From Eubacteriales bacterium (GTDB taxonomy: Bacteria > Bacillota > Clostridia > Oscillospirales > CAG-272): a stretch of 64,000 nucleotides of DNA. Below the pieces are notes generated by a model that was not told the origin of the DNA, did no database searches, and saw only the letters and a program-made list of their open reading frames with translations. The stretch spans positions 1,954-65,953 of the forward strand of contig JAZTXK010000048.1 of the NCBI GenBank assembly GCA_045636385.1. Direction: 5' to 3'. A program made the translations under genes and the position numbers. Shown piece by piece: positions 302 through 36,394 of the stretch (position 1 is its first letter; every line of letters begins with the position of its first letter).

Positions 302-455
302 TTAAATCTTAGTTAAAAGAACTATTTCCGCGCTAATTTTACGCGCAAACGGCGAATGCAACCGCTGGTTGCGCGAATTCCACCTATTATTGGTTGAAAT
401 CGCGACTGTTTTATGCTATAATTAGGTCGAAATCAAACGAAAGGTGATCTACCAA

Positions 456-1385
456 ATGGATAAAGTTACTACGCTTGGCGAAAGGATCAATAAATACCGC
501 ACCGCGCGGGGACTTTCACAGCTCGAGCTTTCCGAGCTGCTCGACGTCTCGCGCCAGTCGATCTCGAAGTGGGAGACAGACGTTGCCGTCCCCGAGCTTT
601 CAAAGCTCGTGAAGATGGCAGAAGTTTTCGGAATAAGCCTCGACGAGCTTGTGCTTGGAAAAACATCGGAAGAAACGCAACCGACCGCCACTCCCGAACC
701 CACTCCCGCCGTCCCGATCGCGGAAATACGCGAGCGTAGCCGCGTCAAGCTCGGATTCGGTTTTACCTTCCTCGGTGTCGGAATTCTGCTTTCATTCCTC
801 ATTTTACTTCTTGCGGGCGACTTTCTCGCCGCGCTCATTCTCTTCGTTCCCTTCGGCGTTTCGGCGTTTTTCTGCCTCAAGCAGTTCCGCCGCGCCGCAC
901 TTTGGTGCGTTGAGGCTTGGTATTGCTGGTTCGCGGCGTATTTCTATTACGGAACGGGCGTGCATTGGAACGCGTGGCTGCCGCGGCTCTTCCACATAGC
1001 CACTCTCGGAATCGATATACAGACGGTTCTCTCCTTCGGCTTCTTCCTTCTGCTCGTTTTCTTCATTTTTATGACGGTTTTCGTGCATCGCAAGGAAGAG
1101 TTCGAATATTCGAAGAAGAAACACGTCGTCCTCGCCGTGGTGACAGCGATTGCGATTCCGTTAAAGCATCTCGTTCTTTGGCTTTCGAGCGCATTTTGGT
1201 TCTACGTTATCGGCAAAGGCGACGGCGAATACTACACCCGCGTGATCTTAATGAATTACCGCGCACTTATCCCAACACTCGAATTCCTCATAGACCTCGC
1301 CTTCACCGTCACCTTCACCGCTTGCCTTGTTCCGACATTTTATTGGATACGCAGATCGGTTAAGGAAAAGCGGACAAAAAACTGA
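456..1385 (+). CDS. XRE-family HTH regulator fused to a multi-pass membrane domain
   Basis: N-terminal HTH_3 signature (RTARGLSQLELSELLDVSRQSISKWE), a Pro/Thr-rich linker, then several hydrophobic helices. ATG 456 has AGGTG about 9 nt upstream; the listed GTG 444 has no RBS. Confidence 0.75.
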   Translation: MDKVTTLGERINKYRTARGLSQLELSELLDVSRQSISKWETDVAVPELSKLVKMAEVFGISLDELVLGKTSEETQPTATPEPTPAVPIAEIRERSRVKLGFGFTFLGVGILLSFLILLLAGDFLAALILFVPFGVSAFFCLKQFRRAALWCVEAWYCWFAAYFYYGTGVHWNAWLPRLFHIATLGIDIQTVLSFGFFLLLVFFIFMTVFVHRKEEFEYSKKKHVVLAVVTAIAIPLKHLVLWLSSAFWFYVIGKGDGEYYTRVILMNYRALIPTLEFLIDLAFTVTFTACLVPTFYWIRRSVKEKRTKN

Positions 1386-1432: not shown

Positions 1433-1461
1433 TTGACAAAAAACACCCTATATGTTATAAT
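1433..1461 (+). promoter_or_regulatory. sigma-A type promoter for the sigma/anti-sigma operon
   Basis: TTGACA (1433-1438), 17-nt spacer, TATAAT (1456-1461), about 30 nt upstream of ATG 1491. Confidence 0.6.
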
Positions 1462-1490: not shown

Positions 1491-2045
1491 ATGTTACTAT
1501 TCCTTATGCTTATCGCGGAGGATGATCATCGCGATAAGATTTTATGGCTTTTTGAAACGTATCACGATAATATGCTCCGATATGCGCGGAGCCTTTTGGC
1601 GTTGTACGGTAAGAAAAGATATCTACGCCACAGCGAGGATATCGTTCAGAACGCTTTTGAGAAGATCACCAAATTCATAGACAGAATCGACACCTCTCTG
1701 CCCGAAAAGGTTATCGGCGGCTATCTGATGACGATCGTCAAGCACGAGGTTGCCGAATTCATAAAAAAAGAGCGGAACGATCTGTCTCTCGATGATATGT
1801 TAACAATTTGTGAAGATTGCAATTATCTTGAAGAATTTTCGAAAAAAGACCTGTATAAAAGAGCAGTGGGCGAGATTGAGAGGATGGAGCCCATCTACCG
1901 CGACGTTATGATACTGAAATTCATCGAGGAAAAGACCGCGAAAGAGATCGCGAGCGAGCTCGGCATCCCCGAAAAGACGGTGTATACCCGCCTTTCCCGC
2001 GCGCTGGCGAAGCTGAGAGAAAAATTCAAGGATGAGGTGCTTTAA
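1491..2045 (+). CDS. ECF-type RNA polymerase sigma-70 family factor (module 1)
   Basis: 184 aa. Region-2-like N-terminus and a region-4 HTH (TAKEIASELGIPEKTVYTRLSRALAKLREKF). GGGAGAG RBS. Its TAA overlaps the next gene's ATG (TAATG). Confidence 0.85.
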   Translation: MLLFLMLIAEDDHRDKILWLFETYHDNMLRYARSLLALYGKKRYLRHSEDIVQNAFEKITKFIDRIDTSLPEKVIGGYLMTIVKHEVAEFIKKERNDLSLDDMLTICEDCNYLEEFSKKDLYKRAVGEIERMEPIYRDVMILKFIEEKTAKEIASELGIPEKTVYTRLSRALAKLREKFKDEVL

Positions 2046-2731
2046 TGGAAATTGAACTCAAAAATATAACCGAAGCGGAGAAGGCAGCGCTTGCCGACGA
2101 ATACGACAAAGCGCTCAGCTTCTGCGCGGACGAAAGCGCGGAATACTCGCTCTCGCACTACGGAAAAATGAAGAAAATAATCGGCACGCGCCCCACTCCT
2201 TGCGCGAGTATAAGAAGAAAGAGATCGCGCATCGCCGCCGTCCTTGTCGCCGCAACGATGTTGATCGCCCTCGTCGGATGCACCGCCGCCGTCTACAAGC
2301 AGCAGATCGGTGATTTCTTTACCGAAATCTATGAAAATCACATCAAAGGAAGCTTTTCGGACGAGACCGATGTCAACAATCAGTTCATAGATGAATACTA
2401 TACGTTGACCTACATTCCCGAGGGGTACCAGATTGCCGATGAAAAGTTCGGCAGTTTAGTAGCAAGAAGTGTTTGGTATAATACTGATGGGAACAAGATG
2501 ATTTTAATCCAAGTACCTATTAAATCAATAAACTATTTTATCAATAATGAAATTGGTATAACCGACGTCATAGAGGTTGGTGAATACACTGTATATTGCC
2601 GGAGCACAGTTGATACATATTGCTGTATTTGGAACAATAAAGAATATGCATTTGAACTTTATTTTGACAATGAAATAAGCGAAGAGGAGATAATTCATAT
2701 TATATCAAAAATCATGCCACTCAAAAAATAA
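2045..2731 (+). CDS. membrane anti-sigma factor candidate with DUF4367-like extracytoplasmic domain
   Basis: Translationally coupled to the sigma gene. One TM helix (IAAVLVAATMLIALVGC). C-terminal segment with YYTLTYIPEGYQ, as in DUF4367-type proteins. Paralogue of 35724-36392. Confidence 0.7.
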   Translation: MEIELKNITEAEKAALADEYDKALSFCADESAEYSLSHYGKMKKIIGTRPTPCASIRRKRSRIAAVLVAATMLIALVGCTAAVYKQQIGDFFTEIYENHIKGSFSDETDVNNQFIDEYYTLTYIPEGYQIADEKFGSLVARSVWYNTDGNKMILIQVPIKSINYFINNEIGITDVIEVGEYTVYCRSTVDTYCCIWNNKEYAFELYFDNEISEEEIIHIISKIMPLKK

Positions 2732-2819
2732 TTGTTATAATATGTAACATCTTACAAATATTATACAATCCAAGCCGATTTTTTTAGTTTTTTCAAAAAA
2801 ATAAAAAATTTTTTATAAA

Positions 2820-2854
2820 GTTGAAGAATAATGTGAAAAACGGCAGTATATATA
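2820..2854 (+). promoter_or_regulatory. candidate ECF-sigma-dependent promoter (GTTGAA-N20-GTATATATA)
   Basis: The same motif with the same spacing recurs at 7820-7854 and, on the minus strand, at 35614-35648. Each copy sits upstream of cassette genes. Confidence 0.35.
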
Positions 2855-2918
2855 AGCGAAGAAACAAAATCAGAACAAAAATCATTATCATTGTTTCTTT
2901 AGAAAGGATTGTATTACT

Positions 2919-3341
2919 ATGAAAAAGTTCACCAAACTTCTCACCCTCCTACTCACGGTAGCGACATTTTGCACATTCGTTTTGCCGCTTTTTGCAAGCG
3001 CTGAAGATGGGATAACCCCGTATTATGTCACCACCGATAATTGTTCATGCGCTTTTGTTGCTTCAAACGGCAAAGGTGTAGCGGCTGTATTATACAATGC
3101 ATATAGCAACGTATTCTCCTATGCATCTGTCACGGTAAAAATTCAGAAGCGCTTCCTCGGCATATTCTGGTCAACGGTTGACGAGTGGACGGAGACCTGC
3201 TACGACGTCAACGGATACGTTGAAAATTCAACTGACCTCGAAGACACCGGAACTTACCGCGCCGTCTTCACCGTCGAGATCTACGGCATAGACGGCTCGG
3301 TGGACACAATCGAGGATAAGATCACCTCAACCTACGAATAA
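2919..3341 (+). CDS. secreted 140-aa protein of unknown function
   Basis: Signal peptide MKKFTKLLTLLLTVATFCTFVLPLFASA with an RBS. Its 3' end is repeated as relics at 5479-5556 and 11708-11776. Confidence 0.7.
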   Translation: MKKFTKLLTLLLTVATFCTFVLPLFASAEDGITPYYVTTDNCSCAFVASNGKGVAAVLYNAYSNVFSYASVTVKIQKRFLGIFWSTVDEWTETCYDVNGYVENSTDLEDTGTYRAVFTVEIYGIDGSVDTIEDKITSTYE

Positions 3342-3449
3342 TTTACAAAAATTATTCGCGAGAGGGGTGAGTCCGATGTTCAGATAAGGCTCAAGCGGCA
3401 CTTTGGTGCAATCTTTTTTCAAAAAACGAACCTTATCAACTTCAGGTAC

Positions 3450-3478
3450 TTGAGAAATACCGAAAAACATCTTATAAT
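3450..3478 (+). promoter_or_regulatory. sigma-A type promoter upstream of S1
   Basis: TTGAGA, 17-nt spacer, TATAAT. About 15 nt before the RBS of 3494. Confidence 0.5.
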
Positions 3479-3493
3479 AAAGGAGAAATCAAA

Positions 3494-3991
3494 ATGAAAA
3501 ACTTTAAAAGAATCATTTCCTTCGTGATGGCTATGATCATCTTCACTTCTTTCTGTTGCCTTAACAGCGGTGCGGAATTCCGTAATTTCTATGAATCAGG
3601 CACGAAATATAAAATGTTCACTTACAATGATGACAATCTGTCAGAAGCATGTGCCTCTATAACAAATTGGGGATATGACGAGGAAGATAACGATCTTTTC
3701 GCAGAAACTTGGGCGCACAGCGGCGGAATTGCGAATTGTAGAGCGCTTTGTGCTGTATCCGGTGTGTCTGTTCTTTTGGACGATTATACAGGAAGATCCG
3801 GTGAAAGTGAAATATTTTATCTCTACGGTGCTGAGTGGATGTACGCATATCACGAAGGTGGTCAATATGATGATTTCGATCACTGCGTCATTGGATTCGA
3901 TACTTCACATAAAGTATATGTCATTCAGTATATTAATGGCTTTATTGATAGCCAATACGGTGACACTTTCTATATAGGTACTTCATCTTAA
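3494..3991 (+). CDS. S-family small secreted protein (S1)
   Basis: AAAGGAG RBS. Signal peptide MKNFKRIISFVMAMIIFTSFCCLNSGA shared with 5710 and 8068. The mature part is acidic/aromatic and highly diverged. Confidence 0.75.
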   Translation: MKNFKRIISFVMAMIIFTSFCCLNSGAEFRNFYESGTKYKMFTYNDDNLSEACASITNWGYDEEDNDLFAETWAHSGGIANCRALCAVSGVSVLLDDYTGRSGESEIFYLYGAEWMYAYHEGGQYDDFDHCVIGFDTSHKVYVIQYINGFIDSQYGDTFYIGTSS

Positions 3992-4045
3992 TATATTTCC
4001 CCCTCGACTGAGGGGGAAATTAATAAATATGCGAGGTATATTCAA

Positions 4046-5449
4046 ATGAAACGAATGTTTTACGCACTTTTGATGGTTTTCATATTATGTATCTTGATTA
4101 CTTCCTGCACGAGCATATACTTTGAATTGCCGGAAGATGACATCAATTCGTCCTTAAATGTCGATACGAATAAAGAATATTTCACCACGGGAGCTGTACT
4201 CTCAAAAGGAAATATTAGTGAAGGCGTTTTTTATAACGGGTATTGGATATACAGAGAAGTACAGGAGTACAGGTACAACTATCTACGCGCTGACGGTAAA
4301 ATCGTGACGTCGTCGCCCACTCAGTTAGCCCGTTTTGTCAAAGTAAACGCCGCAACCGGTGTGGTTTCAAGTCTATGTCTTGATCCTGTATGCAATCATT
4401 CCGTAGGTTCGGGGTGCATAATGATCTGCCCCAAAGGCGGCATTCCGGTTATTCAGGGCTTAGTCGGCGATAACATTCTTTTTACGTACGGAATCCGTGA
4501 TGAAATCTACGGAACTGTAAACCAATCTTACTTATACAATCTGAAAACCGGCGAAGCCAACACTATTTTTGCTCAAAATATGGAAGGGGATATCTTGACG
4601 AAATATTCTTCAAGATATATCTTCGGCGACACTTATTACGTTGTTAAAAATATTCTGGATTTTTCGGAGACCGATTATGATCCTGCAGACCGGGTTCCTC
4701 TCTCGTTCTATACCCCAAAGACAGTCAGCATCCTTTGTGAATACGATTTTAAAAAGAACAATATAAAAGAATTGTTCGAAATCCCCGAGGATTATTCGTT
4801 ATGCATCGTCAGCAGCGAGAGATTTTTCTTCAGTACTCCCGAAAACGAGATATATTCCTGCTATTACAGCGGAAAAAATATGAAGAAAGAAAAGATTCTC
4901 GACTTTTCTCCGGAATATGTGTGCGGAACCTATGCCTATTCTGTCGATTACGAAACTTACAAAATAGTGATATATGACCTGTTAAACAACAAAAAATTCG
5001 CACTTCAAAATGAAGTAAGATCTACTTATTATACGATAACGGACGCGGGCATTATCAAGAACGATCTTTCGGTTCTCGATGAATACCGAAGGATTCAAAG
5101 CAGTTACGATGAACTTAAGGAACAGGGAATAACGCCGACTGCCGCCGATCACGATAAACTCTGCAGAAAGGTCCGCTGCAGCGGAGTAACGCAGATCTGG
5201 AAGTGGAGACACGACGGTAGCAATCCTGAAATGATATTTGAAATTGATAAATCACTGGTAAATATACTTTTTGCAACCGATGATTATCTCTATGGTTTTG
5301 TCTACCGCGCCGATCCCAATAATAATTTCGAAGAAATGCCGTATGAGAATGAAGGCAGAAGCTATATCGACCTCAAAACAGGCGAGATTACGCCGATTCC
5401 CTATCTTGAGTTGATCATTCCCGACCTTGTTGAGCAGCCAGGGAACTAA
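4046..5449 (+). CDS. L-family lipoprotein with C-x4-C-N-H Cys motif (L1)
   Basis: Lipobox ITSC. Conserved blocks SSLCLDPVCNHSVGSGC, YNLKTGE, CEYDF..KELFEIP, GTYAY and DLKTGEITPIP (INxKTGE in the other paralogues) shared with five paralogues in the window. Confidence 0.85.
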   Translation: MKRMFYALLMVFILCILITSCTSIYFELPEDDINSSLNVDTNKEYFTTGAVLSKGNISEGVFYNGYWIYREVQEYRYNYLRADGKIVTSSPTQLARFVKVNAATGVVSSLCLDPVCNHSVGSGCIMICPKGGIPVIQGLVGDNILFTYGIRDEIYGTVNQSYLYNLKTGEANTIFAQNMEGDILTKYSSRYIFGDTYYVVKNILDFSETDYDPADRVPLSFYTPKTVSILCEYDFKKNNIKELFEIPEDYSLCIVSSERFFFSTPENEIYSCYYSGKNMKKEKILDFSPEYVCGTYAYSVDYETYKIVIYDLLNNKKFALQNEVRSTYYTITDAGIIKNDLSVLDEYRRIQSSYDELKEQGITPTAADHDKLCRKVRCSGVTQIWKWRHDGSNPEMIFEIDKSLVNILFATDDYLYGFVYRADPNNNFEEMPYENEGRSYIDLKTGEITPIPYLELIIPDLVEQPGN

Positions 5450-5478
5450 TTTATCATTATTTCTCATAGTAACTCGCG

Positions 5479-5556
5479 ATGTTCATAGTCGAGATCTACG
5501 GCATAGACGGTTCGGTCGACACGATCGAGGACAAGATCACCTCAACCTACGAATAA
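5479..5556 (+). pseudogene. relic of the 3' end of the 140-aa secreted-protein gene
   Basis: Near-identical to 3264-3341 (..VEIYGIDGSVDTIEDKITSTYE*), including the downstream non-coding block. Confidence 0.65.
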
Positions 5557-5666
5557 TTTACAAAAATTATTCGCGAGAGGGGTGAGTCCGATGTTCAGGT
5601 AAGCCGCGTCCGTTACGTTCCGAAAGCAAAAACTTCGGAATAACACAACTTTGTCAACGCAACCGC

Positions 5667-5695
5667 TTGACAGATCACAAAAAATATCTTATAAT
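5667..5695 (+). promoter_or_regulatory. consensus sigma-A promoter upstream of S2
   Basis: TTGACA, 17-nt spacer, TATAAT. The same block is present at 8025-8053. Confidence 0.6.
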
Positions 5696-5709
5696 TAAGT
5701 AGAAAGAAA

Positions 5710-6240
5710 ATGAAAAAATTCAAAAGAATTATTTCCCTCGCGATGGCTATGATCATCTGCGCGTCGTTTTTGCTCGTAAATAGCGGAGCGGCATGGTATG
5801 AATACACCGTGGGAAGTGTAGATATGAGATCTGACTATACTGACGCAACTGCGTATATTGAAATTACCGAATGGCCGCAGGATACCGGTGGTACGGATCT
5901 TAAGGCAGGTACTATAGCTTGCACAGAGGGATATATCGATAACTTAGGTGATCGTTTCGTAACTTTTAGTGTATACGTTCACCTCGGAATAACGCTTGAA
6001 GATTATTTCTCATACAGCAGGGATCTGACCGTTGATTGGGACGGTGAAGAAGATTTTGCCGAGGCAATGATAGATGCAAGTGATTATCCGTTGGGAGAGC
6101 CTTATTATGCAATTATCGACTTGGGCTCGGTTCACGAAGTTACGGTAACCATATATACCAGATTTGATCGTGACTACGTCTGGTGCGACCCCGAACCTTT
6201 TCAGGACGGAGATTTGGTAGTATTCGGAATATCTTACTGA
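5710..6240 (+). CDS. S-family small secreted protein (S2)
   Basis: Signal peptide MKKFKRIISLAMAMIICASFLLVNSGA. The mature region shares only scattered positions with S1 and S3 (I.ITEW....TDL.A.T). Confidence 0.75.
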   Translation: MKKFKRIISLAMAMIICASFLLVNSGAAWYEYTVGSVDMRSDYTDATAYIEITEWPQDTGGTDLKAGTIACTEGYIDNLGDRFVTFSVYVHLGITLEDYFSYSRDLTVDWDGEEDFAEAMIDASDYPLGEPYYAIIDLGSVHEVTVTIYTRFDRDYVWCDPEPFQDGDLVVFGISY

Positions 6241-6298
6241 TCGTTATCCCCCGCGGCTTTGCCGCGGGGGAGCACGCAACACCAAAGGAGGCAATATT

Positions 6299-7720
6299 AT
6301 GAAAAAAACATCTTTAGTCAGCTTGATCCTTGTGCTGTGTATACTTCTATCCTCCTGCAGTACGGTCTATATCGATCCCGAAAAAGGATCGGATAATGAG
6401 TCCACTCTCATCGATGGAGAATATTTTACCGACGGTTCGTTATATCAAGCAGGAGAAAATCAGTCAGGCTTTTTTTACGAGGGCTGTTGGCTATATATTG
6501 AGATGCAAAAGACGATCGGCCCCTCCGGTTATTATATTCGAGACGGTGAAAAGCATATAATATACGACGACCAAGTGCAGATGAAGCGTATCGTCAAGTA
6601 TAATCCGCACACGGGCACAGTCTCAAGTCCCTGCCTTGATCCCGCTTGCAATCACAGCTTTGAATCGGGATGCCTGATGCTCGCTCCGCTGCCCGAGGGA
6701 CGCCAGAAAGTAACGTTCCATATCCGAACGATAATCGGCGATTGGATGCTGATATTTACCCAATGGACCGATGACGTATACGTTACGTTGAATAAAAATA
6801 TCGCATACAACCTGAAGACCGGCGAGTCGAAGGAGATCTTTGAGGAAGAGCTTGGGGAAAGTGTAATGACGCGCTGGATGGGAACAACTCATTTCGGCCA
6901 TAAATATTATATTGTCAAGCAAACTCTTGATTATTCAAATACGGAATATACGCACGGTACGGGCAATCAAAGCGTGCTTGACTTCGCACCCGAAACAAAG
7001 CAGATGATCTGCGAATACGACTTTGATACCGGTACGATGAAGGAGCTCTTTGAGATCCCCGAGAACTTTTACTTAAGCGACGTAACAAATAAAAGGTTTA
7101 TCTTGCGCGATGATATGAATGAGATGTATTCCTGCAGCTACGATGGAAGCAATATGTCCAAAGAAGAATATCTGGACGCACAGCAGGAAAATATGATAGG
7201 GCACTATGGTTACATATTTACTGATCTTGATGGCTTCATTATGTTTGATCTGAAGACGAATGAGAAAAAGCAGGTGACGGTCGATTATGACGAATACTAC
7301 GGCGCGGGGATCTGTGAGGAGGGAATACTTCTTGACCACGTAAGCGGGTACGAAAAATACAGAGAGCATCTCTCCCTGCGGAAGGAGCTTCCTTCCAAAT
7401 ATGCCCAAGAGTTGAATATCAGCCTTGAAGAAGCACGGGAAAAATATGACGCTGAAAAGAATGAGATATTGTTTGGCGGTACGACAAGGGTATATATGTG
7501 CGACTTCGACGGCGAGAATATGCGCGTGATCTATGAGGAAGAAAATGCCGTTATCCGATCGTGGTATGCGGAGGGAGACTTTTTGTTCGCCGAAAGAAGC
7601 GTTCTTAATGCCGACGGAAAAAAGAAGGTTTCCGATTGTGTTATCAATATGAAAACGGGAGAGATCACCGAGCTTCCCTTGCTCGATATCGTCGTTCCCG
7701 ATTGGTACGTAAACGATTAA
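6299..7720 (+). CDS. L-family lipoprotein (L2)
   Basis: GGAGG RBS, lipobox LSSC, SSPCLDPACNHSFESGC motif, C-terminal LDIVVPDWYVND. Confidence 0.85.
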   Translation: MKKTSLVSLILVLCILLSSCSTVYIDPEKGSDNESTLIDGEYFTDGSLYQAGENQSGFFYEGCWLYIEMQKTIGPSGYYIRDGEKHIIYDDQVQMKRIVKYNPHTGTVSSPCLDPACNHSFESGCLMLAPLPEGRQKVTFHIRTIIGDWMLIFTQWTDDVYVTLNKNIAYNLKTGESKEIFEEELGESVMTRWMGTTHFGHKYYIVKQTLDYSNTEYTHGTGNQSVLDFAPETKQMICEYDFDTGTMKELFEIPENFYLSDVTNKRFILRDDMNEMYSCSYDGSNMSKEEYLDAQQENMIGHYGYIFTDLDGFIMFDLKTNEKKQVTVDYDEYYGAGICEEGILLDHVSGYEKYREHLSLRKELPSKYAQELNISLEEAREKYDAEKNEILFGGTTRVYMCDFDGENMRVIYEEENAVIRSWYAEGDFLFAERSVLNADGKKKVSDCVINMKTGEITELPLLDIVVPDWYVND

Positions 7721-7727
7721 ATATTAT

Positions 7728-7761
7728 ACAGAGAACCACGCGAGGTTCTCTGTATTTTTTT
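7728..7761 (+). terminator. intrinsic terminator after L2
   Basis: Stem ACAGAGAACC/GGTTCTCTGT followed by ATTTTTTT. The same structure recurs at 10104 and 11847. Confidence 0.7.
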
Positions 7762-7819
7762 GCCAAAGGTATGGACTTTTTCAAAAAATGTGATAAATTA
7801 AATAAAAATTTCCGAATTA

Positions 7820-7854
7820 GTTGAAGAAAAAGCGTAATAATGACGGTATATATA
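7820..7854 (+). promoter_or_regulatory. second copy of the candidate ECF-type promoter motif
   Basis: GTTGAA-N20-GTATATATA with spacing identical to 2820-2854. Followed by what looks like a deleted remnant of the 140-aa gene start. Confidence 0.35.
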
Positions 7855-8024
7855 AATGAAGAAATACGAGCTATGATCGCATTCTCAAAAACGGTGGTAT
7901 TGATTAATAAAAAACCTACCAAAAATATTCGCGAGAGGGGTGAGTCCGATGTTCAGATAAGCCGCGCCCGTTACGTTCCGAAAGCAAAAACTTCGGAATA
8001 ACAAAATTTTGTCGACCCAACCGC

Positions 8025-8053
8025 TTGACAGATCACAAAAAATATCTTATAAT
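8025..8053 (+). promoter_or_regulatory. consensus sigma-A promoter upstream of S3
   Basis: TTGACA, 17-nt spacer, TATAAT. Part of a block nearly identical to 5565-5790. Confidence 0.6.
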
Positions 8054-8067
8054 TAAGTAGAAAGAAA

Positions 8068-8601
8068 ATGAAAAACTTCAAAAGAATTATTTCCTTCGCG
8101 ATGGCTATGATCATCTTCGCGTCGTTCTGCCTTGTAAACTGCGGGGCGGTACCTTATCGCTTCTGTCCTCTGTCAGAGCGTTATACTATCGAATACTTTT
8201 CCACAACAAGCGCATACGCATATGTCTACATTACCGACTGGGCTGAAGAAGAAAACACCACAGACCTTTCTGCATCCACCTACGCTTTTGTTGAAGATTA
8301 CGATTATTGGGACAATTTCGAAAACCTTACAGTATCCGTAAAGTTAGCAGTTTGGCTTGATGACGGTTCCGATTTTTGCCTTATCAGAACCGATTCCGTA
8401 GATGCTACCGATAATGAGGTTGAACTTGAAGCATTTGTCAGTGGCCAAACCTGCCTCGACAGTGAAAATCATTACCCTATAGAATATTTTGATACAGAAC
8501 ATGAAGTTGTCATAACTTTAATCAATGATAACGATCTGTCAAGTAATTATTATGACTATGTAAATGACGGCCCCGTTATTTGTATAGGTCCCGAGTATTA
8601 A
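8068..8601 (+). CDS. S-family small secreted protein (S3)
   Basis: Signal peptide MKNFKRIISFAMAMIIFASFCLVNCGA. Acidic, diverged mature region. Confidence 0.75.
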   Translation: MKNFKRIISFAMAMIIFASFCLVNCGAVPYRFCPLSERYTIEYFSTTSAYAYVYITDWAEEENTTDLSASTYAFVEDYDYWDNFENLTVSVKLAVWLDDGSDFCLIRTDSVDATDNEVELEAFVSGQTCLDSENHYPIEYFDTEHEVVITLINDNDLSSNYYDYVNDGPVICIGPEY

Positions 8602-8668
8602 TTCTTATTCATCTTTCCCACGCAGCTCTGCCGCGGGGAAAATGATAAGACGATTTTGGAGGTAATAT

Positions 8669-10087
8669 ATGAAAAAGCTAATACGGATGATACTATTTAC
8701 AGCAATTATTGCTATTCTATTGTCCTCATGCCAATCAATATATGAAATGCCCGTTGTAACCACCGGTCCCGCAGAAGGATTTGAATTAGCCCCCGACCAG
8801 GAATATTATACTATGGGTTACCCTTATCAAAGTGGAGATATTGCTTACGGAATGCTGTATGAAGGATGTTTAATTTTTATCGAGGAACGTCCGACTATAG
8901 GTCAGGTCGGAGTAAAGACGAACGGCGAAGAAAGCGTCCCTGTATATGGCGAAACAACTGTCAAAAGAGTTGTCAAATACAATCCGGTAACGGGTATTAT
9001 TTCAAGCCCCTGCCTTAATCCGAGCTGCAATCATTCGATCGGCTCAGACTGCCCTATGCTCTTTCCTTATATCGAGGAAGAGAAACACGATCATATATTC
9101 AGAGGAATATTCGGCGATTGGCTTGTAATATGGACGAATATTTATAATGAAGAATTTCGGATGCTCTATGAGGAAACCCTATATAATCTCAAAACGGGAG
9201 AGGTACGGCGCGTTTTCAGTGATGAATTGGGTTCAGAAATATTGGTTCGCTGGAGCGGCGGCTCTTATTATAACGGAAAATATTACAGAGTGAAAAAGAT
9301 TCTGAACTATTCGGGCACCGGTTATAAACCCGGGCAAAAGGGGATGAGTATTAGTAAATACACGCCCTTTACAAGGCAATTTCTTTATGAATATGATTTC
9401 GAAAGCGACACAAGTAAAGAGCTTTTTGAAATACCTACAGGATATAATCTTGGTAAGTTTACTAACAAAAGAATTTATTTTGCTAACGATGTGAGAGATA
9501 CAATCTCCTTTAAAATGGACGGCACGGATAAACGCAGAGAAGAATCCATGGATGGTATGGGTATAAATAATTTGGTTGGTACATATACGATTTACCAAAA
9601 AGACACTGGCAAAATCAATGGCTACATGGTTCACGATCTTAAAACCAAGGAACAAAAAGAAGTGATCTTTGATTTTTCAATGATAGGTTACGTCTGCGCG
9701 ACCGAAAAAGGCATTCTTGCTAATCATCAGACAAAATATGACGAATGGAAGAACTTTTCAGCAAAGGAATACCGCGAGCAGAATCCCGGTGCAACTACAA
9801 AAGAAGTCAATGCCGCAGCAAAAAAGATTTTAGCTGAGGGCACGGCACAGATATGGCAGTGCGGCTATATGGGCGAGGATCCTCACGTGATCTTCGAATT
9901 GAAGCATGCTATGATAAAAACGATCGCAGCACAAGGTGATTACCTTTTTGCCATAGTAAGCCGCTACGACCCCGAAACCGGAGAAGAAATATCAAATGGC
10001 AGATCGGTTATAAATATAAAAACCGGTGAGATCAGCGAGATCCCCTATCTCGATATCGTTGTTCCCGATTGGTACGTTAACGATTAA
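8669..10087 (+). CDS. L-family lipoprotein (L3)
   Basis: GGAGG RBS, lipobox LSSC, SSPCLNPSCNHSIGSDC motif, C-terminal LDIVVPDWYVND. Confidence 0.85.
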   Translation: MKKLIRMILFTAIIAILLSSCQSIYEMPVVTTGPAEGFELAPDQEYYTMGYPYQSGDIAYGMLYEGCLIFIEERPTIGQVGVKTNGEESVPVYGETTVKRVVKYNPVTGIISSPCLNPSCNHSIGSDCPMLFPYIEEEKHDHIFRGIFGDWLVIWTNIYNEEFRMLYEETLYNLKTGEVRRVFSDELGSEILVRWSGGSYYNGKYYRVKKILNYSGTGYKPGQKGMSISKYTPFTRQFLYEYDFESDTSKELFEIPTGYNLGKFTNKRIYFANDVRDTISFKMDGTDKRREESMDGMGINNLVGTYTIYQKDTGKINGYMVHDLKTKEQKEVIFDFSMIGYVCATEKGILANHQTKYDEWKNFSAKEYREQNPGATTKEVNAAAKKILAEGTAQIWQCGYMGEDPHVIFELKHAMIKTIAAQGDYLFAIVSRYDPETGEEISNGRSVINIKTGEISEIPYLDIVVPDWYVND

Positions 10088-10103
10088 GATTAATACGCTT
10101 TAC

Positions 10104-10131
10104 AGAGAACCCCGCGGGGTTCTCTCTTTTT
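10104..10131 (+). terminator. intrinsic terminator after L3
   Basis: AGAGAACCCCGCGGGGTTCTCT hairpin followed by CTTTTT. Confidence 0.65.
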
Positions 10132-10141
10132 GAAAAATATA

Positions 10142-10170
10142 TTGACATTTCACAAAAAATGTGTTATTAT
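10142..10170 (+). promoter_or_regulatory. sigma-A type promoter upstream of L4
   Basis: TTGACA, 17-nt spacer, TATTAT. The spacer shares TCACAAAAAAT with the S2/S3 promoters. Confidence 0.5.
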
Positions 10171-10252
10171 ATAGGTACAATATTGTTACATTGTTACATT
10201 TTTTACGGCAATGCAGCTGAGGTTGGTAAAATATATTATGAGGCATATTGAT

Positions 10253-11662
10253 ATGAAACGATTTGTTAACCTTATTTTGCTATCCATCGCGCTCTGTATT
10301 TCATTTACTTCCTGCACCGGTATTTATTCGGAGCTTCCCGATGTCGTAACGACGAATACTGTCACTGTCGATCTGAATAAAGAATATTTCACCACCGGTT
10401 CGGTATATGAAAAAGGCAATACGACCGAGGGCGTTTTCCACAACGGGTATTGGATCTACAGAGAGGTACAAGAATATTCATACAATTATAAAAGGCCCGA
10501 CGGTAAGATTGTAACGTCGAGCGGAAACAATATGGTTCGTTTTGTCAAATTAAATACTGCAACCGGGGTATTATCAAGCCTTTGTCTTGATCCCGTGTGC
10601 AATCATTCTATCGGTTCGGGATGCATTATGATATGTCCGTCGGGCGGCACACCGCTGATTCAGGGGTTTGTGGGCGATAATATTCTTTTAACTTACGGAG
10701 TACGTGACGAAATATACGGATATTTAAATCAATCCTACGTATATAATCTCACAACCGGTGAGACGAAAATTATTTTTGCACATAATATGGCAGACAATGT
10801 GCTCACTAAGTATTCATCAAGATATATTTTTGATGATACTTACTATGTTGTAATGGATGTTCTGGATTATTCGAATACCGGATACAACCCTCAGGATCAA
10901 CAACCGTTGTCAAATTACAATCCCGAAACCGTTAGCATACTTTGTGAATATGATTTTAAAAAGGACACCCTTAAAGAATTGTTTGAAATTCCCGTCGGGT
11001 ATTCGTTGTGCATTGTCAGCAACAAGCGCTTTTTCTTTTCAAGTACCGAAATGGATATGTATTCTTGCGATCGCAACGGTGAAAATATGAAAAAAGAAAA
11101 AGTGCTCGATTTTTCTCCGCAATTTTTATGTGGGACCTACGCTTATAATATTGATTATGAAACGTATGAAATCGAGATCTACGATCTGAATACAAATGAA
11201 AAGCATACGCTGAAAAATGAAATCAGTTCGACATATTGCACGATTGCAGAATCGGGTATCATCAAGAATGATCTGTCTGTTATGGATGAATACAAGGATG
11301 TCAAAGCAAACGGTTTTAAAGAGCTTGAAAAACAATATCCGGATCTCCATAGAAATGAAATAACCAAAATGTACGATACACTCTGCCGAAAGGTGCGCTG
11401 CAGCGGAACAACACAGATTTGGAAATGGGATCTCAACGGAAGCAACCCGCAAATGTTATTTGAATTTGATAAAGCATTGGCAAAGATAATCTTTGCTACC
11501 GATGATCACCTTTACGGCTTCGTATACCGCGCCGACCCGAACAACAATTATGAAGAAGCGCCGTACGAAAACGAAGGAAGAAGCTACATCAACCTCAAAA
11601 CCGGAGAAATAACGCCGATCCCATATCTGGAACTTATTATTCCCGAACTTGTTGAACAGTAA
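10253..11662 (+). CDS. L-family lipoprotein (L4, closest to L1)
   Basis: ATG 10253 has GAGG 7 nt upstream and gives the lipoprotein signal MKRFVNLILLSIALCISFTSC. The listed start 10211 adds 14 residues that do not look like signal peptide. Motif SSLCLDPVCNHSIGSGC. Confidence 0.8.
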   Translation: MKRFVNLILLSIALCISFTSCTGIYSELPDVVTTNTVTVDLNKEYFTTGSVYEKGNTTEGVFHNGYWIYREVQEYSYNYKRPDGKIVTSSGNNMVRFVKLNTATGVLSSLCLDPVCNHSIGSGCIMICPSGGTPLIQGFVGDNILLTYGVRDEIYGYLNQSYVYNLTTGETKIIFAHNMADNVLTKYSSRYIFDDTYYVVMDVLDYSNTGYNPQDQQPLSNYNPETVSILCEYDFKKDTLKELFEIPVGYSLCIVSNKRFFFSSTEMDMYSCDRNGENMKKEKVLDFSPQFLCGTYAYNIDYETYEIEIYDLNTNEKHTLKNEISSTYCTIAESGIIKNDLSVMDEYKDVKANGFKELEKQYPDLHRNEITKMYDTLCRKVRCSGTTQIWKWDLNGSNPQMLFEFDKALAKIIFATDDHLYGFVYRADPNNNYEEAPYENEGRSYINLKTGEITPIPYLELIIPELVEQ

Positions 11663-11707
11663 GGAAACCAATTAATAATTTTCACAGAGATCCATACTGG
11701 GGTCTCT

Positions 11708-11776
11708 GTCCAGATATACGGCAAGGATGGCTCGGTCGATACGATTGAGGATAAGCTCACCGATACTTACGAATAA
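11708..11776 (+). pseudogene. second, more diverged relic of the 140-aa gene 3' end
   Basis: Encodes ..QIYGKDGSVDTIEDKLTDTYE*; compare ..EIYGIDGSVDTIEDKITSTYE* at 3341. Confidence 0.55.
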
Positions 11777-11846
11777 ATCCAAACCCGATTTCGGGCCGGG
11801 GGTGTACGCATAGACTCCATACCCTGCGCGTAATATCATAGCTTTC

Positions 11847-11880
11847 ACAGAGAACCCCGCGAGGTTCTCTGTATTTTTTT
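11847..11880 (+). terminator. intrinsic terminator closing the cassette array
   Basis: ACAGAGAACCCCGCGAGGTTCTCTGT followed by a T-run. It and the next ~40 nt duplicate 7728-7800. Confidence 0.65.
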
Positions 11881-11948
11881 GCCAAAGCTATGGACTTTTC
11901 AAAAAAATGTGATATAATATATAGGAAATAATTTTTAAGGATAACGCT

Positions 11949-12797
11949 ATGGTAAAAAAGATAATCAAGGATTATGCCGTCATAACCTTCGGCGCGGTCG
12001 TTGCCGCGGCGGCGATCTACTTTTTCATGCTTCCAAGCCACATCGCGGTCGGAAGCGGCTCGGCTCTGGCGATGGTTCTCGCGAACTTCATCCCCCTGCC
12101 CGTGTCGGTCATTTCGCTCTCACTCAACATCATCTTTCTGATACTCGGATTCATCCTGATCGGCCCCGAATTCGGTGCCAAAACGGTCTACACCACCATA
12201 CTCGTGCCTGTTTCGCTCGGTATTTTTGAGACGTTTTTTCCCGATTTTCAGTCGCTGACCGCCGATCCACTGCTCGATATGGTCTGCTATCTGCTTATAG
12301 TCGGCATCGCAATGGCTCTGCTCTTCTCGCATAACGCGTCGTCGGGCGGCCTTGATATCGTCGCGAAGATAATGCATAAATATCTCAGAATGGAGCTTGG
12401 CACGGCAATCTCGGTCTCGGGACTCGCGGTTGCGCTGACGACCGTCTTCGCCTACGACTCAAAAACCGTCGTGCTCAGTATCCTCGGTACATATCTCAGC
12501 GGAATCGTCGTTGACAAGTTCATTTTCGGACTCAACATCAAGCGCCGCGTCTGCATCCTTTCAAAGGAGCATACCGAGGAGATCGTCGATTACCTGCTCC
12601 ACGAGCTCCACAGCGGCGCCTCGCTCTACGACGTCATCGGCGCTTACGACGGTGCCGTCCGCCGTGAAATACTCGCAATCGTTGATAAAAATGAGTACCG
12701 CAAGCTGATGGACTTCGTCAAGAAGACCGACCCCACAGCATTCGTCACCGTTTATTCTGTCAATGAGCTGAGATACCAGCCGAAAGTAAAGCGGTGA
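11949..12797 (+). CDS. YitT-family membrane protein (with DUF2179-like C-terminus)
   Basis: N-terminus KDYAVITFGAVVAAAAIYFF with several TM helices. Soluble C-terminal domain ending FVTVYSVNELRY, typical of YitT/DUF2179. Confidence 0.7.
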   Translation: MVKKIIKDYAVITFGAVVAAAAIYFFMLPSHIAVGSGSALAMVLANFIPLPVSVISLSLNIIFLILGFILIGPEFGAKTVYTTILVPVSLGIFETFFPDFQSLTADPLLDMVCYLLIVGIAMALLFSHNASSGGLDIVAKIMHKYLRMELGTAISVSGLAVALTTVFAYDSKTVVLSILGTYLSGIVVDKFIFGLNIKRRVCILSKEHTEEIVDYLLHELHSGASLYDVIGAYDGAVRREILAIVDKNEYRKLMDFVKKTDPTAFVTVYSVNELRYQPKVKR

Positions 12798-12805
12798 GAG
12801 CAAAT

Positions 12806-12944
12806 GAGGAGGGCAGAGGTAAGAGGGCAGAGGGCAGAGGTAAAGGAAAATTTCCTCACTCCGTTCGGAAATTATTTTAATAAAAAATTGCTTTTCGCTT
12901 GCGAAAAGCTTCCATACCTCTGCCCTCTGCCCTCTGCCCTCTGC
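12806..12944. repeat. inverted repeat built from tandem GGGCAGA heptamers flanking an inner hairpin
   Basis: Left arm GAGGAGGGCAGAGGTAAGAGGGCAGAGGGCAGAGGTA. Right arm TACCTCTGCCCTCTGCCCTCTGCCCTCTGC. Inner hairpin GCTTTTCG-CTTG-CGAAAAGC at 12890-12909. Confidence 0.8.
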
Positions 12945-12979
12945 AATAAAAAATCTGAATTATAATAAAGGATATAAAA

Positions 12980-13777
12980 ATGAAAAACATAGAAAACCTC
13001 CTCCTCCCCCTCATCCGCGAGGCGGGTAAAATTATGACGGGTGCGCGAGAAATCGAAGGCACTGTCAGCGAAAAGGGCGGCGACAGCGCGAATATGGTGA
13101 CCGTATTTGACGTCGCTGTGCAGAATTTCCTGATGAATGAGATCACAAAGCTCATTCCCGATGCCTTTTTCTTCGCCGAGGAAAAGGAAAACAACGCCGA
13201 GGATCTTATGCGCGACTACTGTTTCGTCATTGATCCGATCGACGGAACGACCAATTTTGTTCACGAATACCGCTATTCCTGCATCTCCGTCGCAATGTTC
13301 TCGCGCGGAGAGGTAAAATTCGCCGCGATATACGATCCCTACGCCGACGAGATGTTCTCCGCCGCGAAGGGTTGCGGCGCATTCCTCAATGGGGCGCCGA
13401 TGAAGGTCTCCGACCGCGACATGGCGCATTCTCTCGTTGCCTTCGGCACCTGTCCGCATTCGAAGGGACAGCTTGGCGAGGCGAGCTTTCGTCTTGCTCA
13501 CGCGCTTTACAGCGAGTGCAGCGACGTTCGCCGCGCAGGCGCGGCGGCACTCGACATCGCGCATCTTGCCGCGGGCAGAAACGATATTTTCTTTGAGCTT
13601 CTGCTCTCGCCCTGGGATTTCGCCGCGGGCTCGCTCCTTGTCCGTGAAGCGGGAGGCATCATTACCAACGCCGAGGGAAAAGAGATCGACTTTTCCGCTC
13701 CCTCGCCCGTCCTCGCCGCAAATCCCCGCGTCTTTGGCAGTTTTCTCGAGATCGCCAAAGAAGTCCTTGCTAAATAA
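12980..13777 (+). CDS. inositol monophosphatase family protein
   Basis: IMPase signatures FVIDPIDGTTNFVH and WDFAAGSLLVREAGG. Confidence 0.85.
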   Translation: MKNIENLLLPLIREAGKIMTGAREIEGTVSEKGGDSANMVTVFDVAVQNFLMNEITKLIPDAFFFAEEKENNAEDLMRDYCFVIDPIDGTTNFVHEYRYSCISVAMFSRGEVKFAAIYDPYADEMFSAAKGCGAFLNGAPMKVSDRDMAHSLVAFGTCPHSKGQLGEASFRLAHALYSECSDVRRAGAAALDIAHLAAGRNDIFFELLLSPWDFAAGSLLVREAGGIITNAEGKEIDFSAPSPVLAANPRVFGSFLEIAKEVLAK

Positions 13778-13782
13778 AAAAA

Positions 13783-13807
13783 CACTCACCCGACCGTCGG
13801 GTGAGTG
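13783..13807. terminator. bidirectional terminator hairpin between convergent genes
   Basis: CACTCACCCGA-CCG-TCGGGTGAGTG, preceded by an A-run. Confidence 0.55.
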
Positions 13808-13816
13808 AATTCATAA

Positions 13817-14251
13817 TTACTTGCCTTCGTATTCGTAAATTCTCGCGAGCTTGGGCGCGGAACGGCTGTTTTCGTCGTAGGTGACCGAAAGGTATTCCTT
13901 AACGATGCACTTAGCAAGCTCGTTACCGACGACCTGCGAGCCGATGGTGATGATGTTTGCGTGGTTGGAAAGCTCGGCGCGCTGTGCCTGATAAACGTCG
14001 TGAACGCAGGCTGCGTATGCACCCTTCACCTTGTTTGCGGCGATCGAAACACCGATTCCGGTTCCGCAGATAAGTATGCCACGGTCGTATTTCTTTGCGG
14101 CAACAGCCTCAGCAACCTCGAAGGCTACGTTCGCGTAGATCGTATCGTCGCTTCCGAAGTCACAAACCTCGTGACCGAGAGCGGATACGAATTCGATAAG
14201 CTCCTTTTTAAGTGCCGCGGCGTTGGGGTCGCAGCCAAAAGCGATCTTCAT
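13817..14251 (-). CDS. rpiB: ribose-5-phosphate isomerase B (RpiB/LacA/LacB family)
   Basis: MKIAFGCDPNAA..., CGTGIGVSIAANKVKGAYAA and a 144-aa length are typical of RpiB. Confidence 0.85.
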   Translation of the reverse strand: MKIAFGCDPNAAALKKELIEFVSALGHEVCDFGSDDTIYANVAFEVAEAVAAKKYDRGILICGTGIGVSIAANKVKGAYAACVHDVYQAQRAELSNHANIITIGSQVVGNELAKCIVKEYLSVTYDENSRSAPKLARIYEYEGK

Positions 14252-14386
14252 TTTTTATTTTCTCCCTGAATAAAATATTGCGCTGATGACGATAATAAAA
14301 CAGAAAATTTGCGCGCAATTATATTATATCATAACGTAAAGAATATTGCAATAGAATGACAGATTTTTGTGGTCAGGAGAACAACA

Positions 14387-15172: not shown

Positions 15173-15175
15173 TTA

Positions 15176-15214
15176 CCTTGGCTGTCTCACTTTATCGTGG
15201 ACAGCCAAGGTTTA
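15176..15214. terminator. hairpin terminator between convergent genes
   Basis: CCTTGGCTGTC ... GACAGCCAAGG stem followed by TTTA. Confidence 0.5.
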
Positions 15215-15333
15215 TATCTGCGAAATTATTGTTTGCATTCATCTGCGTTTAATGTTTAGCTTCGTACTATAATCAATGCCCCCATAAGTGAGAAACGTCT
15301 GTACTGCATAATACCAATAAGTAGCGATACTAT

Positions 15334-15699: not shown

Positions 15700-15727
15700 T
15701 TTATCACCATTATAGTCGAAATTATTC

Positions 15728-16673: not shown

Positions 16674-16674
16674 T

Positions 16675-35563: not shown

Positions 35564-35613
35564 TTTTGTACCATCCTTTCGGGGAATTGTTTTTATTATT
35601 TTTTCCCTCTATA

Positions 35614-35648
35614 TATATGTACAGAAAAAACTCGTGATTTTGTTCAAC
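35614..35648 (-). promoter_or_regulatory. third copy of the candidate ECF-type promoter motif
   Basis: Minus strand GTTGAA-N20-GTACATATA upstream of L6, with the same upstream TTTTCAAAAAA block as the other copies. Confidence 0.35.
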
Positions 35649-36392: not shown

Positions 36393-36394
36393 TC

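Follow-up and report, generated by a model that had tools for sequence, protein, structure and literature searches.

How does a genome come to carry, behind a single pair of regulatory genes, a string of related genes for secreted proteins and lipoproteins, and what could such a string be for? We address this question for a 64,000-nt stretch of an Eubacteriales bacterium (assembly GCA_045636385.1, contig JAZTXK010000048.1, positions 1,954 to 65,953), called the window hereafter and providing all coordinates. An original prediction, made from the letters alone, placed there an extracytoplasmic function (ECF) sigma factor gene, a gene for a DUF4367-type anti-sigma factor, a gene for a 140-aa protein (P140), three successive pairs of genes for a signal-peptide protein (S) and a lipoprotein (L), and a fourth, lone L gene. 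The open reading frames of the window agree with this layout, since every one of these genes is present and intact (Table 1). We compared the window with database loci (L001-L029) and database protein relatives (P0173 and others), all of them from metagenome assemblies. The array is a strain-variable repertoire of two-gene S-L cassettes appended to a sigma/DUF4367/P140 core.

Cassette content differs between close relatives

The original prediction had itself raised the possibility of an array that is invariant across related strains; this is not what the relatives show, as both copy number and order differ among them. L010 shares its flanks with the window (helix-turn-helix [HTH] protein 88, YitT 94, IMPase 96, and RpiB 99% identical in aa; 92% in nt over 11843-17000), and its P140 and YitT are separated by a lone S (43%) and a lone L (50% to L2). 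L022 (P140 72%, YitT 78% aa) has a single S2-type S and a single L2-type L ahead of YitT. In L018 (anti-sigma 94%, P140 97%, L2 90%), P140 is followed by an S and an L of new types, a 3' relic of S2, L2, and YitT; L028, with flanks as in L018, reads P140, S2-type, L. L024 (S2 96%, L2 94%) has three L genes followed by a P140 relic, S2, and L2. L025 (L4 98%) is homologous from window position 10228 and has an S (56% to S1) before L4, then a P140 relic and an S-type promoter block. Finally, L026 reads sigma, anti-sigma, P140, an S 46% identical to S3, and three L genes. L2 has orthologues of 90-94% identity in L018 and L024 and of 48-50% identity in L010 and L022. Hence, relatives whose shared cassettes are 90-98% identical differ in the number, order, and type of their cassettes. 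The array of the window is the largest among the compared loci. Arrays made of L only occur in L004, L008, L009, and L024, and the window itself has two unpaired L genes, L4 and L5 (the latter in a second locus described below).

Recombination blocks and the age of the cassettes

Self-comparison of the window, together with tblastn, bears out the earlier claim that the junctions between units re-use promoter and terminator blocks and contain relics of the P140 gene. Five pairs of segments stand out: 1) 5559-5791 and 7917-8149 are 92% identical; 2) 3267-3578 and 5482-5794, which run from the 3' end of P140 through spacer and promoter to the signal-peptide codons of S, are 79% identical; 3) 4159-5556 and 10366-11776, i.e., L1 and L4, each with the adjoining relic, are 72% identical; 4) 7640-7795 and 10007-10166, i.e., the 3' end of L with its terminator, are 78% identical; and 5) 7728-7804 and 11847-11923 are 91% identical. 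The terminator/promoter block is present in three copies (7728-7804, 10097-10173, and 11847-11923). The P140 relics, found after L1, after L4, and ahead of S3, point to an ancestral repeating unit of the form P140-S-L. When genomes are compared with each other, homology stops just past the signal-peptide codons of S (3556-3578, 5784-5794, and 8130-8149) and at the terminator block, and because homology ends there we identify these short conserved blocks as the recombination handles. The comparisons show an array built from ancient, deeply diverged P140-S-L units and remodelled by homologous recombination at two kinds of places, the P140 3' flank together with promoter and signal-peptide codons of S, and the L 3' end with the terminator; owing to recombination at such blocks, close relatives differ in cassette number, order, and type at one and the same site.

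The paralogues themselves are old. Synonymous sites are saturated in all paralogue pairs of the array (proportion of synonymous differences, pS, 0.70-0.82), and the ratio of nonsynonymous to synonymous divergence (dN/dS) is about 0.10 between L1 and L4. Against two syntenic relatives, dN/dS is 0.09-0.34 in the genes of the locus and 0.05-0.11 in the flanking housekeeping genes. Saturated synonymous divergence (dS) and low dN/dS point to cassettes that are old, shuffled lineages under purifying, though somewhat relaxed, selection. The same values led us to reject recent tandem amplification and positive selection, and with them the original description of the module as rapidly evolving; it is the content of cassettes that turns over quickly. 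The other earlier claim, that the array grew by repeated unequal recombination, stands as far as recombination at the junctions goes and falls where it would imply recent amplification. The junction DNA is 78-92% identical while the adjoining coding sequences are saturated in dS, and it must on this comparison have been homogenised or exchanged recently. Against L010, dS is 1.0-1.2 in the anti-sigma ectodomain and in P140, 0.3-0.6 in the flanks, and saturated between L2 and the L of L010, which fits an import of old alleles rather than a local acceleration. The array was also said, by eye, to be AT-richer than its flanks, and the computed GC content is indeed 0.409 in 2760-11930 vs 0.512 in 11931-64000.

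A conserved core of sigma factor, anti-sigma factor, and P140

The sigma factor contains sigma-2 and sigma-4 domains only, as expected for group IV, and exceeds the cutoff of TIGR02937 (sigma70-ECF) with 66.9 bits vs 42.9. It falls under the NCBIfam equivalog cutoffs of SigV (48.8 bits for a cutoff of 190), SigW (45.2 for 209), SigX (35.6 for 194), and SigM (36.1 for 199), and is also far under those of SigY and SigZ. The anti-sigma factor matches DUF4367 (PF14285) over residues 119-223 with 35.5 bits (cutoff 22.1); its best matches among the PDB sequences reach only E = 0.02. Its start codon overlaps the stop codon of the sigma gene at 2045, and the order of a sigma gene with the anti-sigma gene directly downstream is kept in at least ten loci. 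We therefore predict that the two are cognate, co-transcribed partners.

P140 has a Sec-type signal peptide and belongs to a well-conserved family of 91 clusters. In every context that we fetched, including distant taxa without S and L, it lies directly behind sigma and DUF4367. Because distant homologues keep this place without S or L, the conserved core is sigma/anti-sigma/P140, with S and L as clade-specific additions, and the trio defines a wider, uncharacterised three-gene module, for which we found essentially no literature; the name DUF4367 came up in a single paper. Examples of trios in distant contigs, with P140 homologues 35-43% identical and neither S nor L, are L019/L020 (4669-6429) and L021 (4695-6435). 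Homology between P140 and S was considered and rejected because hhalign aligns only their signal peptides. Just 5' of the sigma gene is a gene for an XRE-type HTH protein with a multi-transmembrane C-terminal half (444-1385, plus strand). It is syntenic in L010 (88%), and it is probably outside the module because AAA_14/DUF3916 genes take its place in L018 and L028.

The transmembrane helix of the anti-sigma factor ends in a lipobox-like LVGC (residues 76-79, window 2270-2281). A lipobox (LVGC, LAGC, LIGC, or NGC) at the outer face of the helix is present in all 12 DUF4367 anti-sigma factors examined, i.e., the two of the window (2045-2731 and, on the minus strand, 35724-36392) and those of L003, L008, L010, L016, L018, L019, L021, L022, L026, and L028; Pfam gives a weak LPAM_MltD match in the second of the window. 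Such conservation suggests processing by Lgt and type II signal peptidase, which might separate the sigma-binding part from the DUF4367 domain. A literature search for an anti-sigma factor, a lipobox, and site-1 cleavage together returned nothing, nor did one for lipoprotein-type processing of anti-sigma factors.

S and L as a two-gene module

The original prediction of a two-protein module is upheld by three lines of evidence. First, in 13 of 13 independent sites the gene that comes after S is an L, and L frequently occurs without S. Second, the type of S tracks the type of L in every cassette that could be typed: S1-type goes with clade A, that of L1 and L4 (L001 and L025), S2-type with L2-type (L010, L022, and L024), and S3-type with L3/L5-type (L016 and L012). 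Third, nearly every S-to-L spacer holds a GC-rich hairpin without a U-tract, with z between -3.4 and -5.6 in five of seven cases. Taken together, S and L form a genuine two-gene module, and the hairpin is in keeping with a bicistronic mRNA whose S:L ratio is set. Hairpins of this kind are also present in 8591-8659 and in the spacers of L001, L018, and L022, where their position is kept and their sequence is not.

The S family is small (20 clusters) and has a Sec-type signal peptide, which is nearly invariant among 22 S proteins; the mature parts are about 35-50% identical. The AlphaFold2 (AF2) model of S3 is a beta-sandwich (pLDDT 89.4), and Foldseek searches of PDB with this model gave no match at E <= 1e-3.

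L as a predicted beta-propeller lipoprotein

L proteins have a signal peptide and, read by eye, a lipobox (ITSC, LSSC, LSSC, and FTSC in L1 to L4), of which S20 and C21 are invariant in 52 family members. They are predicted lipoproteins, and the lipobox, along with the Sec signal peptides, supports the envelope exposure proposed earlier for these proteins. The AF2 model of L1 (pLDDT 88.9, pTM 0.83) is all-beta, with about 30 strands and a helical insert at residues 344-377. Foldseek finds 159 matches at E <= 1e-3, with probability 1.00 to Kelch, WD40, BamB, MADH (methylamine dehydrogenase), and 3S25, albeit with modest TM-scores of 0.3-0.5; the matches are generic propellers in PDB and viral structures alike. 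We are confident in predicting a beta-propeller fold, of probably about seven blades. All 54 aligned sequences, including the fused form described below, have an invariant motif C-x4-C-x-H-x5-C (C111, C116, H118, and C124), which could be a structural or sensing metal site.

The C-terminal tails had been used to sort L1/L4 and L2/L3 into two subtypes. The two tail types correspond to deep clades throughout the L family, and L1 and L4 are 68% identical; L2 and L3 share only 39%, and L proteins of different types 33-35%. Like P140 and S, L forms a tiny family found in metagenome assemblies only: 49 clusters among 5.8 billion and, in a profile search, 171 representatives at E <= 1e-3 among 1.84 billion, with all genome records being metagenome-assembled genomes (MAGs) named 'Eubacteriales bacterium' or 'Clostridia bacterium'. 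The three families are uncharacterised, as originally supposed for S and L, with no usable match to profiles in Pfam, NCBIfam, PADLOC, PHROGs, or PDB sequences. For L we looked further. Pfam at E <= 1 gave no match for any L or for ten remote relatives, to DUF5050 or otherwise, there was no Pfam match to DUF576 (the Lpl family of Staphylococcus aureus), and hmmsearch with the L profile gave nothing at E <= 10 among PDB sequences. In a MAG of another lineage (L017, 659-11947), at least five very distant L-like genes (22-31% identity) stand in tandem, so the formation of arrays seems to characterise the wider superfamily as a whole.

Two further loci with sigma factors and propellers

The window has two more loci, overlooked in the original prediction, that join an ECF sigma factor to an L-type propeller. 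The second one lacks P140 and S and has a GC content of 0.387. Its flanking genes (33277-34032 and 37073-38008) adjoin the YitT-side locus in other genomes, which means that the two loci are rearranged with respect to L003, L013, and L022. In the third, the sigma gene overlaps the gene for a 442-aa protein with a short cytoplasmic N-terminus, a transmembrane helix, and an L-type propeller, which includes a CLNSACNH...C motif and an NIKTGEINPIP end and is 25% identical to L in tblastn (E 8e-24). This suggests a domain fusion that links the propeller to anti-sigma function. Six database relatives (P0173, P0175, P0177, P0181, P0182, and P0184) share the fused architecture at the level of the protein. 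An element TGAAAC-N17-GTAC is found upstream of the sigma gene of the third locus. Two other relatives are longer, P0209 with 668 aa and P0211 with 673 aa. In both, an N-terminal segment and a transmembrane helix are followed by an extra domain of about 200 aa, which has some likeness to DUF4367 in a PEG-containing stretch, and then by the propeller. All three parts may be joined in these proteins; Pfam did not confirm DUF4367 in either.

Table 1. Features of the window discussed in the text (CDS, coding sequence; scores of promoters are matches to TTGACA-N17-TATAAT)
Feature	Position	Strand	Remarks
Promoter of sigma gene, sigma-70-type	1433-1461	+	12/12; extended TG
ECF sigma factor	1491-2045	+	184 aa; Pfam Sigma70_r2 (26.6 bits) and r4_2 (55.7 bits)
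Anti-sigma factor, single-pass	2045-2731	+	228 aa; cytoplasmic N-terminus, transmembrane helix, extracytoplasmic DUF4367
Candidate sigma-dependent promoter motif	2820-2853	+	GTTGAA-N20-GTAYATAT, 5' of P140; putative function
P140	2919-3341	+	140 aa; Sec-type signal peptide; third member of the core
Junction block with S1-L1 promoter	3344-3493	+	promoter 3450-3478 (11/12); homologous to 5559-5709 and 7917-8067
S1	3494-3991	+	165 aa; signal peptide
S1-L1 intercistronic hairpin	3995-4020	+	GC-rich, 11-bp stem, no U-tract; spacer 3975-4052: -24.8 kcal/mol, z = -4.9
L1	4046-5449	+	467 aa; clade A; lipobox
P140 3' end relic	5476-5553	+	aa 115-140; tblastn 92% aa
Junction block with S2-L2 promoter	5554-5709	+	promoter 5667-5695 (12/12)
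S2	5710-6240	+	176 aa; signal peptide
S2-L2 intercistronic hairpin	6247-6271	+	GC-rich, 11-bp stem; spacer 6225-6305: -28.6 kcal/mol, z = -3.5
L2	6299-7720	+	473 aa; clade B; cassette type normally found at this chromosomal site
Intrinsic terminator after L2	7726-7755	+	12-bp stem and T-run; first of three block copies
P140 promoter motif relic ahead of S3	7820-7853	+	exact motif match; P140 CDS deleted; aligns with 2780-2870
Junction block with S3-L3 promoter	7917-8067	+	perfect promoter 8025-8053
S3	8068-8601	+	177 aa; secreted, predicted beta-sandwich
L3	8669-10087	+	472 aa; clade B; 53% identical to L5
Intrinsic terminator after L3	10104-10125	+	
Promoter of L4, sigma-70-type	10142-10170	+	11/12; extended TG
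L4, unpaired	10253-11662	+	469 aa; clade A; frame opens at 10211, likely start at 10253 behind GAGG ribosome-binding site
Second P140 3' end relic, after L4	11705-11773	+	78% aa
Terminator closing the array	11847-11872	+	block onward to 11923 holds promoter of YitT-family gene
Third locus	24351-26233	+	ECF sigma factor 24351-24908 (Pfam sigma domains); overlapping 442-aa protein 24905-26233
Second locus	34160-36940	-	ECF sigma factor 36395-36940; DUF4367 anti-sigma factor 35724-36392; L5 34160-35563
Candidate motif of second locus	35615-35648	-	GTTGAA-N20-GTACATAT; between anti-sigma gene and L5

A tentative model of recognition and signalling

The structural account of this hypervariable locus is well supported and its function is unproven, in organisms that are uncultured. 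The explanation that we favour, tentatively and at somewhat less than an even chance, is that S and L are cognate pairs of a secreted ligand and a propeller receptor, set on an ECF signalling core and with a repertoire remodelled by recombination. Each L would serve outside the cytoplasm as a binding module for its cognate S or for a ligand resembling S, and the propeller might be an input or partner domain of this type of ECF pathway, as a free lipoprotein beside the DUF4367 anti-sigma factor in the first and second loci and fused to an anti-sigma-like membrane protein in the third. The motif that is unlike sigma-70 promoters, 3' of the anti-sigma gene, would drive P140, and readthrough across S1-L1-S2-L2 could follow from the same promoter, as there is no terminator before 7726. 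Each S-L unit, and L4, would also be transcribed from its own sigma-70-type promoter, and the S:L ratio is probably set by the hairpin that separates the two genes. In the three loci of the window and in L003, L008, L010, L016, L018, L022, L026, and L028, what comes directly behind a sigma factor and its anti-sigma factor is L or P140-S-L.

A number of observations weigh against this explanation. First, the candidate motif has only three matches in the 64 kb of the window (2820, 7820, and, on the minus strand, 35615) for 0.04 expected, a count made on the same sequences from which the motif was derived; nor is it a match to AAC/CGT, the classical pattern for promoters of the ECF kind. Its three sites are 5' of P140, in the relic ahead of S3, and 5' of L5 downstream of the second DUF4367 anti-sigma gene, so that within the array it concerns only P140 and the relic; it is also found in L016 and L018. 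Second, a separate consensus sigma-70-type promoter precedes each of S1, S2, S3, and L4. Together with the one ahead of the sigma gene, these make five TTGACA-N17-TATAAT promoters with 11-12 matches out of 12. Because each unit has such a promoter, the control of S and L by the sigma/anti-sigma pair, which the original prediction proposed, is unproven. Third, the sigma genes of the two DUF4367 loci have perfect sigma-70-type promoters and no obvious autoregulation. Fourth, L genes without a sigma/anti-sigma homologue within several kb are found in L001, L002, L007, L011, and L015, accounting for about half of the L genes elsewhere; hence, L can work without the pathway, and the idea that it is an obligate partner of a sigma/anti-sigma pair is weakened by these five loci without a detectable sigma factor nearby. 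Fifth, propellers and sandwiches are generic folds that give no clue on the ligand. Sixth, the window, like its comparators, is a metagenome assembly.

Some other features of the junctions were considered and discarded. Perfect TTGACA-N17-TATAAT sites are unusually frequent, with ten in 64 kb, two of them ahead of ECF sigma genes (1433 and 36994). With ten in the window, perfect promoters are not a speciality of the array. Invertible promoters or phase variation were rejected: in a scan for inverted repeats, the only pairings were those between terminator hairpins. We also rejected structured RNA, both for the junction blocks and for the 5' untranslated regions of P140 and L5, given fold z-scores of about 0 and one sub-threshold match in Rfam.

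Alternative explanations

The main rival has the same architecture and reads it as conflict: S would be a secreted polymorphic antibacterial protein of bacteriocin type, L its cognate, outward-facing lipoprotein immunity protein or neutraliser, a lone L or an L-only array a set of orphan immunity genes amassed against the S variants of competitors, and the ECF pathway with its propeller anti-sigma factor a sensor of incoming S. We think this unlikely. S indeed joins a conserved leader to a variable body, with breakpoints at the boundary, as polymorphic systems do; the constant partner downstream, the orphan L genes, and the L-only arrays form the gene layout that such systems would be predicted to have; repertoires are strain-specific and low in GC; and tandem immunity paralogues, including the lipoprotein TipC, recombine at conserved 5' and 3' blocks (PMC9484751). 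However, S looks like a plain beta-sandwich, without a toxin-like domain or any Pfam, NCBIfam, PADLOC, PHROGs, or significant Foldseek match, a propeller of 450 aa would make a large immunity protein, and the hairpin layout favours expression of S over L. Furthermore, most genomes have a single S, located at the sigma locus, and no secretion or killing machinery is encoded nearby.

In another explanation, by analogy with known sensors, L, with S, would bind extracellular polymers or nutrients, and the paralogous sigma/anti-sigma pairs would switch on the matching genes. The many sigmaI/RsgI pairs of Clostridium thermocellum and the ECF-linked SusC/D pairs of Bacteroides work along such lines. 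The presence of three paralogous sigma/anti-sigma loci with an L propeller in 64 kb, in one of which the propeller is the ectodomain of an anti-sigma-like protein, speaks for this possibility, as does the fact that propellers and beta-sandwiches are common carbohydrate binders, polysaccharide lyases being among the Foldseek matches of L. Yet, no gene for a glycoside hydrolase, a transporter, or a carbohydrate-binding module is linked to the arrays, there is no match to a carbohydrate-binding family, and turnover of cassettes at the level of strains is less typical of a nutrient system than of a locus for conflict or recognition. We regard it as quite improbable.

It is just as doubtful that P140, S, and L are simply the envelope-maintenance output of an envelope-stress ECF sigma factor, with paralogues drifting neutrally by unequal crossing-over and no cognate recognition. 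The genes do lie downstream of sigma and anti-sigma, all of them are under purifying selection, and tandem lipoproteins of variable copy number are known, such as the lpl genes of S. aureus (cited in PMC9484751). Plain output fails to account for the tracking of S type with L type, or for cassette types only 30-50% identical that stand side by side and differ among relatives with 89-98% identity in the cassettes and core genes they share; and the propeller/anti-sigma fusions indicate an input role, beyond output alone.

A more elaborate version of the ligand-receptor explanation is a long shot. The locus would be an undescribed Gram-positive system of recognition and signalling, in which S proteins are strain-specific ligands or effectors; L proteins, with their Cys3-His metal site, are cognate receptors or neutralisers and, in some paralogues, the sensor of an anti-sigma factor; the DUF4367 anti-sigma factor is activated at its lipobox, with type II signal peptidase as the site-1 protease that frees the sigma-binding fragment for intramembrane proteolysis; and the repertoire would serve kin or competitor discrimination in uncultured Clostridia. 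Finally, it is very improbable that the long array is an assembly chimera of single cassettes from co-occurring strains, joined at the shared junction blocks of metagenome data in which related strains with different cassettes occur within one sample series (SRR292779xx), because the longest exact repeats within the array (66 and 58 nt) are below typical reads and final k-mers, multi-L arrays were assembled independently in many samples (L004, L006, L008, L024, L026/L027), and the internal relics fit a genuine history of recombination.

If the ligand-receptor explanation is true, its consequences go beyond this locus. It defines three uncharacterised protein families (P140, S, and L) and a conserved sigma/DUF4367-anti-sigma/P140 module, gives a concrete hypothesis for the ligand sensed by the DUF4367 anti-sigma factor, and adds, for Gram-positive bacteria, a case of extracytoplasmic protein pairs whose repertoire is strain-specific and driven by recombination. 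This genomic signature is usually associated with conflict between strains, with recognition, or with phage/host pressure. In addition, a new route of anti-sigma cleavage is suggested by the lipobox that is conserved in the transmembrane segment.

Comparison with known systems

Our literature searches found no description of these families, of an S-L cassette with P140 relics, of a coupling to a DUF4367 anti-sigma factor, or of propeller/anti-sigma fusions. Parallels exist for the individual parts. Accessory lipoproteins of membrane sensors, such as LpqB with MtrAB and CseA with SigE-CseBC, are thought to modulate the sensor and, like L, are encoded beside an envelope-signalling system; unlike L, they belong to other phyla, folds, and signalling chemistries and are single-copy, not polymorphic cassettes. 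Clostridium (Acetivibrio) thermocellum has multiple sigmaI/RsgI pairs, as well as sigma24C/Rsi24C, in which each anti-sigma factor has a different extracellular sensing module. Its sensors are carbohydrate-binding modules and its sigma factors of the SigI type, whereas here the recurrent module is an uncharacterised propeller, usually a separate lipoprotein. The DUF4367 fold itself is presumably LolA-like. In the LolA-like superfamily (RseB/MucB, GerS, PLLLF), some members take part in anti-sigma control, and the Bacillus subtilis GerS orthologue SsdC has an extra DUF4367 domain (bioRxiv 10.1101/2025.01.13.632879). Unlike the proteins of the window, RseB is a separate periplasmic protein of diderms. 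As for the propeller, the best target-normalised TM-score (TMt 0.53) among the 50 PDB matches listed is that of EUBREC_1955 (PDB 3S25), a seven-bladed propeller-like protein of Eubacterium rectale, likewise from a gut Clostridia species and likewise of unknown function; it has no sequence-level relationship to L, and the query-normalised TM-score is only 0.37.

A close signalling system is SigmaV-RsiV of B. subtilis and Clostridioides difficile, where the anti-sigma ectodomain is the direct receptor of a protein ligand and the transmembrane segment doubles as a latent, signal-peptide-like cleavage site (PMC4183432, PMC5014341, PMC9044953). Both systems pair a Firmicute ECF sigma factor with a single-pass anti-sigma factor. 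They differ in that the ectodomain is here DUF4367, the transmembrane segment ends in a lipobox (a type II motif, whereas the site of RsiV is type I), the sigma factor is remote from SigV by the scores given above, and RsiV lacks accessory cassettes of lipoproteins and secreted proteins.

The nearest parallel for the array itself comes from the immunity genes of type VII secretion (T7SS), esaG and tipC (the latter a lipoprotein), and from the lpl genes on the nuSa-alpha island of S. aureus, which are tandem arrays of Firmicutes that homologous recombination has reshaped (Garrett et al. 2022, PMC9484751). There is no relationship with them in sequence or, by Pfam, in family, and the array studied here has a two-gene S-L unit with P140 relics, no linked T7SS or known toxin, and a place behind an ECF sigma/anti-sigma pair. 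That tandem arrays of lipoproteins or partner genes evolve by recombination at conserved blocks is already known. In both cases, non-identical paralogues are strung together with short conserved blocks, at their ends or junctions, serving as handles for recombination, close strains differ in copy number and composition, and the products include outward-facing lipoproteins (TipC and Lpl there, L here).

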